The translations under genes and the position numbers were made by a program. Source: Escherichia coli (lineage in GTDB: Bacteria > Pseudomonadota > Gammaproteobacteria > Enterobacterales > Enterobacteriaceae). From it: a stretch of 334 nt of DNA. The notes beneath the pieces are model-generated. The model worked only from the letters and a program-made list of their open reading frames with translations, made no database searches and had not been told where the DNA came from. Shown here in pieces: positions 1-334 of the stretch (position 1 is the first letter of the stretch; each line of letters starts with the position of its first letter). The stretch lies in assembly GCF_003334765.1 (NCBI RefSeq), contig NZ_QOWT01000136.1. One strand, 5' to 3'.

Positions 1-334
1 AGCATTCTTTCCAGGTCGACGAGTCGGTCAGTCTGTTGCCCGGTGATAAGATGAAACCCCCACCGGTCCCACCTCACTAGGTTGTTGTTGACGATAATTT
101 TACTGCCAAATTTGCAGGGGCAATTGGTTTTGTAATTCCAGTTCAGTCCCCTGAAGACGTTGATCACCCCTCGCTCAAACACCTCATCCTTATTCTGGTG
201 TAGTTGTTCAAATGTGCTCAGAATGTTCGCTTCACTGATTTCCGGAAAATTATCGTGCTCCAGTGACCGGTACCATGTATCACGGGCCTGTGCATCCATT
301 AAGGAAAGCATCCCTGAACGTTGCATCAGGTCAC
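1..334 (-). CDS. Partial CDS (internal fragment, both ends outside the window or start unresolved), hypothetical protein of unknown function. In-frame codons occupy + coordinates 3-332. Translation (N->C): DLMQRSGMLSLMDAQARDTWYRSLEHDNFPEISEANILSTFEQLHQNKDEVFERGVINVFRGLNWNYKTNCPCKFGSKIIVNNNLVRWDRWGFHLITGQQTDRLVDLERM
   Basis: Seen in sequence: manual six-frame translation gives one frame on the reverse complement that is open for all 110 codons across the window. Both other minus-strand frames have stops within the first 60 nt, and + frames 1, 2 and 3 have stops at 52-54 and 133-135, 44-46, and 78-80 respectively. A 110-codon stop-free run at about 48% GC is unlikely by chance (rough estimate well under 1%). 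Codon choice and composition look like a real protein, with a mix of charged, aromatic and hydrophobic residues and no low-complexity runs apart from NNN. Product is unassigned: I see no catalytic motif I can name with confidence (no Walker A, no clear PD-(D/E)xK, no SAM-binding or DPPY-type methyltransferase motif in this fragment). Confidence 0.8.

Follow-up and report, generated by a model that had tools for sequence, protein, structure and literature searches.

Three in-frame ATG codons near the edge of an Escherichia coli genomic-island fragment are very probably internal methionines of a stand-alone DUF4942 gene

Two described protein types lie closest to the locus considered here. The RefSeq DUF4942 protein WP_001280493.1 (280 amino acids (aa)) is encoded in genomic islands that share their neighbours, in the order GTPase, Ag43, antirestriction, RadC/JAB, DUF987, CbeA, CbtA, DUF5983, DUF957 and then DUF4942, as well as an island-end position beside cadC, an integrase or a tRNA. 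The second is a phage or mobile-element type, represented by the DUF4942-methyltransferase protein P0301 (468 aa), which carries its DUF4942 domain at residues 85-264 and a C-terminal Pfam MTS domain at 305-411. A stretch of 334 nucleotides (nt) from E. coli (contig NZ_QOWT01000136.1; hereafter the window, meaning the whole stretch that was analysed) was compared with both. Its minus strand encodes part of a protein that is identical to WP_001280493.1 over the window save one Asn and shares its start; it ends after DUF4942, unlike P0301, which aligns with it over residues 16-278. Three in-frame ATG codons are clustered at the high-coordinate end of the window, at + 324-326, 309-311 and 297-299. 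With little room for doubt they are internal, encoding Met99, Met104 and Met108 in a stand-alone DUF4942 gene of 281 codons that starts 286 nt beyond the window edge.

The initial annotation had placed the three ATGs on the minus strand at these positions, and they were found there, in one frame that is open to both window edges. This frame, read from + 332 as DLMQRSGMLSLMDA... / DLMQRSGMLSLMDAQARDTWYRSLEHDNFPEISEANIL...LVDLERM, translates with zero stops across the 334 nt; the remaining two minus-strand frames are interrupted by many stops, and the plus strand of the window holds no open reading frame (ORF) of more than 20 aa. The 110-residue window peptide matched Pfam DUF4942 (PF13708) with an E value of 1.5e-33 (model positions 11-117 of 190), and the full 281-aa protein, with its residues 87-276 on model positions 1-189 of 190, belongs to the family with an E value of 6.1e-65. 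By megablast, 3,588 of the 5,426 complete E. coli genomes hold a match to the window, and the coding sequence (CDS) over it is invariably annotated as 'DUF4942 domain-containing protein'. In E. coli 300709 (L001), for example, this CDS is 280 codons long, and 286 nt of it precede the window. Moreover, the entire window occurs verbatim in three independent assemblies (L009, L010 and L011) at 3287-3620, inside a CDS at 3001-3846, and in each of them the distance from the high-coordinate window edge to the start codon is 286 nt. The open frame, the Pfam match and the verbatim loci together assign positions 1-332 (minus) to codons 97-206 of the gene. The product is of the stand-alone architecture (~260-290 aa, with ~85-100 residues N-terminal to the domain). 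An exhaustive HMMER search of 1.84 billion representatives yielded 2,112 relatives, among which those at 30-45% identity are mostly 255-300 aa long and align from query residue ~13-20 to 278.

To locate the start, the sequence past position 334 was followed in L009, L010 and L011, where the frame stays open for another 372 nt, up to the TAA (2914-2916) that closes the DUF957 gene ahead of it. The ATG at 3001 is the first ATG, GTG or TTG after this TAA and is directly preceded by AAAAGGGAAACCGATA; the AGGGA at -13..-9 of this ATG gives a duplex of -5.3 kcal/mol with the anti-Shine-Dalgarno (anti-SD) sequence (energies were computed over the -20..-4 regions), at a spacing of 8 nt. Stop, start and window are arranged likewise in E. 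coli 300709. The start called by PGAP (Prokaryotic Genome Annotation Pipeline) is the same ATG in all nine E. coli copies inspected (300709 and eight paralogues of 88-96% DNA identity), and in the eight paralogues it lies 84 nt after the DUF957 stop. Furthermore, a purine-rich AAGGA, AGGGA or GGAG is kept at about -13..-9 in 12 loci, including the Yersinia pseudotuberculosis copy and the more distant L005, despite the diverging intergenic sequence. Translation would then begin at the first start codon after the DUF957 TAA, served by this purine-rich Shine-Dalgarno (SD) element (AGGGA, AAGGA or GGAG at -13..-9).

The proteins point the same way. An alignment of 23 rows contains 22 full-length proteins, drawn from Escherichia, Salmonella, Serratia, Enterobacter and Klebsiella. 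They begin ~98 residues before Met99 with MS(D/E)xT... (one begins MQ), and the segment H15-T-D-V-I-C-S-T-S23 is well conserved among them. A wider alignment consisted of 72 diverse representatives (28-73% identity, chosen for a length of 250-300 aa), and in each of the 72 from 80 to 118 residues precede the column of Met99. The Pfam DUF4942 domain begins at residue 87, ahead of all three methionines. Across ten DNA copies, the ratio of nonsynonymous to synonymous codon differences is 0.84 for codons 21-98 and 0.85 for codons 109-281; as the two hardly differ, the region upstream of the methionines is coding and equally constrained. Gene position, upstream stop, the conserved SD and N-terminus, and residue conservation are all direct results. 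The initial annotation had judged the start most likely to lie upstream of the window with these methionines internal, and the 286-nt offset in the verbatim loci, together with the stop and the SD-ATG pair found outside the window, supports that view. Neither an in-frame stop just upstream of position 334 nor genuine homologue N-termini at Met99, Met104 or Met108 were found, and none of the three ATGs is the first start codon after an in-frame stop, six in-frame ATG or GTG codons preceding Met99.

Some points weigh against the assignment. The upstream sequence of the window's own copy is deduced from identical copies elsewhere, and we infer, rather than observe, that ribosomes would use the upstream ATG alone. 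The N-terminal length statistic of the 72-sequence alignment is biased to full-length forms, because its representatives were picked by length. Finally, the AGGGA ahead of Met108 pairs with the anti-SD at -4.9 kcal/mol, near the value of the true start.

What the three methionines do within the protein was examined by residue conservation and predicted structure. Among the 22 full-length proteins, Met99, Met104 and Met108 are invariant. In the 72 diverse homologues, Met99 is Met in 57 (the rest being Leu, Phe, Ile or Gly), Met104 is Met in 33 and Leu in 28, and Met108 is Met in 69 and Leu in the other 3; residue 102 is Ser or Thr in all 72 and residue 103 is Gly in 69. Judged from these aligned sequences, the substitutions fit buried hydrophobic residues and not start codons. 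An AlphaFold2 model built on the 72-sequence alignment (mean predicted local distance difference test (pLDDT) score 87.7; predicted template modelling score 0.79; pLDDT below 50 at residues 1-18 only) shows residues 24-102 as confident helices packed against the rest of the protein. In this model, Met99 (+ 324-326) sits at the C-terminal end of predicted helix 79-102, Ser102-Gly103 forms a break, Met104 (+ 309-311) lies in the short helix 104-107 that follows, and Met108 (+ 297-299), a nearly invariant core residue, stands ahead of helix 110-121. From the model we infer that the three methionines may help pack this helix-break-helix junction, that is, that their role is structural; W95-x-x-L-M99-x-x-S-G-M104-x-x-x-M108-D-A is a conserved hydrophobic motif at this junction, which lies at the start of DUF4942. 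The PDB yielded no structure related in fold to the DUF4942 model. The clustering itself is not beyond chance, since, when residues are shuffled, at least three Met fall within 10 residues in 20% of cases for the full protein (281 aa with 10 Met) and in 6% for the 110-aa window peptide. Precisely the stretch with the methionine cluster was found duplicated, in frame and in tandem, in two singleton E. coli proteins, P0121 (308 aa) and P0123 (313 aa) (as EIWRDLMQRSGMLSLMDAQARDTWYRSL or AITRNLDREIWRDLMQRSGMLSLMD); these duplications may be real or may be assembly artefacts.

Certain database proteins do begin at these methionines. In the first protein search, P0029 and P0032 began at the equivalent of Met99, and P0007 and P0065 at that of Met108. 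As real isoforms they were rejected, for the underlying DNA shows nonsense mutations, 5' truncations or contig ends. P0032, from Y. pseudotuberculosis, follows a TGG to TAG change at Trp96, and the N-terminal 97 codons there form a gene call of their own; P0029 lies behind a stop at Trp74; P0065, from Salmonella, is a remnant with homology from residue 93 onward; and P0007 reflects either a contig end or a junction closely preceded by a stop. The decayed copies, of which there are many, include L002 2698-3567 (Y. pseudotuberculosis CP008943.1, Trp96 to TAG) and L005/L006 1207-2052 (Trp74 to stop), and the 5'-truncated ones L004 1465-2031 and L007 31-591, where homology exists only from residue 93-95. 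Database 'proteins' of 173-187 aa thus mimic an internal start because gene callers restart at the Met99 or Met108 equivalents in decayed copies. A further variant is an in-frame deletion widespread in E. coli, represented by P0021 and P0024 (189-190 aa; 1,455 and 1,361 member sequences), in which residue 25 is joined to residue 118, so that 92 residues (26-117) are gone, among them all of the methionine cluster and positions 1-31 of the Pfam domain.

The existence of such copies raises the question of whether the window's own copy is itself a 5'-truncated or interrupted pseudogene, the longest product of which would start at one of these methionines. The nonsense-mutated and truncated loci above, and the commonness of the form lacking residues 26-117, speak for this reading. 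Against it, the exact 281-aa product with the rare Asn-Asn-Asn allele of the window is recorded in 44 assembly blocks, the three loci examined that contain the window verbatim are all intact, and the upstream region plus the 5' end of the gene are present at 80% coverage or more in 3,666 of 5,426 complete E. coli genomes. A decayed copy is considered extremely improbable.

Whether any of the three ATGs could serve as a start in an intact gene depends on the sequence ahead of each. The initial annotation had seen no convincing SD, which held for Met99 (anti-SD pairing of -1.5 kcal/mol) and Met104 (+0.6 kcal/mol); at Met108 the pairing noted above is formed by AGGGA at + 311-315 (minus), but at a distance of 11 nt. 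That element had been correctly positioned; it does not abut the second ATG, however, as its last A is the A of that ATG (a one-base overlap), and it is separated from the third ATG by 11 nt rather than about 12. None of the three has an SD lying 5-10 nt upstream, and the motif ahead of Met108 is unconserved at wobble positions. A second product of 174 residues, initiated at Met108 via this AGGGA and made beside the full-length protein without the N-terminal region, would find encouragement in the strength of the pairing, in the Met kept at this position in 69 of 72 homologues, and in Gly103 being encoded by GGG in all nine E. coli copies and in Yersinia. On the other side, Met108 is spaced at 11 nt, the true start at 8 nt. 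The leading A of AGGGA tracks the wobble base of Ser102 (TCA, TCC or TCG), GGG becomes GGA in L005, and the 11-nt spacer is free at synonymous sites, the codons between AGGGA and Met108 varying synonymously (CTT TCC TTA, CAG AGT CTG, CTG TCA TTA). Leu is the only residue that replaces Met108, a substitution compatible with packing rather than with initiation. In addition, a product initiated there would lack helix 79-102 and positions 1-21 of the Pfam domain, and all inspected database proteins beginning at this point are truncation artefacts. A second start at Met108 is therefore considered highly improbable.

Compared with known internal in-frame initiation sites, the cluster is alike in that its ATGs lie in frame within an ORF and that Met108 stands behind an SD-like pentamer. 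It is unlike them in the poor spacing, in an SD-like element and spacer without synonymous-site constraint, and in methionines kept as hydrophobic amino acids and not as starts. Read as coding sequence, AGGGA spans the wobble base of Ser102, the whole GGG of Gly103 and the A of the Met104 ATG, and it is a by-product of coding because residue 102 is invariably Ser or Thr, residue 103 is almost always Gly and the wobble bases are free. On the sequences compared, its resemblance to an SD is accounted for by the Ser-Gly-Met codons, with nothing pointing to selection beyond coding. Moreover, codon 104 is ATA (Ile) in L019 (E. coli PSS-13), an intact E. coli paralogue, and therefore the second ATG is dispensable even within E. 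coli. Scanning L010 for promoters and terminators revealed no internal promoter-like site within the part equivalent to the window, with counts not above shuffle expectation. There is only a slim chance that low-level initiation at Met108 yields a shortened, DUF4942-only protein without the N-terminal helices that would behave differently; if it did, pseudogenised copies with this part open would still make a functional fragment.

The window differs from the reference at one further point. Aligned with L001, it has a third AAC where the reference reads AAC-AAC, so that VNNL becomes VNNNL and 280 aa become 281. The resulting (AAC)3, at 81-89 (minus), encodes Asn178-Asn179-Asn180 and is an in-frame insertion, whereas WP_001280493.1 has (AAC)2. 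None of the 5,426 complete E. coli genomes searched has the (AAC)3 allele, the top-scoring of 3,591 matching records all reaching 99.1% identity over a 331-nt span, and a 50-nt pattern across the insertion had 0 matches in GTDB species-representative genomes and 0 in JGI metagenomes. The record of this allele in the 44 blocks of the assembly collection came from exact-sequence lookup of a constructed 281-aa product (the reference plus one Asn). The AlphaFold2 model places the extra Asn in the turn of a predicted beta-hairpin formed by strands 174-177 and 182-185; as this region varies across the family, the added residue is probably tolerated.

With respect to function, residues 83-281 matched positions 81-287 of the 548-position PHROGs profile phrog_6263, 'DNA methyltransferase' (E value of 5e-15). 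A Pfam scan of the 281-aa protein returned DUF4942 only; NCBIfam and PADLOC, neither of which has a DUF4942 model, gave no match; and a motif search found no [DNS]PP[YFWH] and no GxGxG, so the protein lacks the marks of a methyltransferase. The label 'restriction methylase' in some records is thus unsupported for catalysis, because only DUF4942 is present and methyltransferase motifs are absent. DUF4942 may be an accessory module that works elsewhere with a methyltransferase. A literature search for DUF4942 returned passing mentions only.

In its genomic setting, the gene is the last of a CbtA/CbeA (CP4-44-like) island, downstream of cbeA-cbtA-DUF5983-DUF957 at the island end. In E. coli K-12 MG1655 (L020, 2074000-2081000), the CP4-44 prophage ends after cbtA-yeeW, without a DUF957 or DUF4942 gene, and a tblastn search with the protein gave no match at the CP4-44 end of K-12. 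K-12 YoeF was rejected as a counterpart (BLASTP 21 bits; a gappy 24% alignment). On the plus strand, the sole Rfam hit, snoZ163, scored 16.7 bits where the gathering score is 39 (E value of 0.53) and was rejected as chance.

The 84-nt spacer between DUF957 and DUF4942, which lies outside the window, harbours a terminator-like element at L010 2944-2980, made of an 11-pair hairpin (GACGTCAGCC...GGCTGGCGTT) followed by TTTCGTTTATA. The 3' arm of the hairpin (GGCTGGCGTTTT) is retained in the E. coli paralogues and can still be recognised in Yersinia and in L005. The gene may thus be directly preceded by a conserved terminator or attenuator, but the scan count was not above shuffle expectation. The DUF957 and DUF4942 genes are in one reading frame, with only the DUF957 TAA (L001 3628-3630; L010 2914-2916) and 84 stop-free nt between them; therefore one stop-codon change would fuse the two ORFs. 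Longer database entries of 375-385 aa may be such DUF957-DUF4942 fusions, or miscalls.

Annotation of the gene, start included, already exists in thousands of genomes, and in that sense the finding is an ordinary one. The result confirms the existing start annotation and identifies the methionine cluster as an internal protein motif, which in itself matters little. For the DUF4942 family it carries a caution: database entries that start at these methionines are restarts by gene callers and are no evidence for an alternative start.
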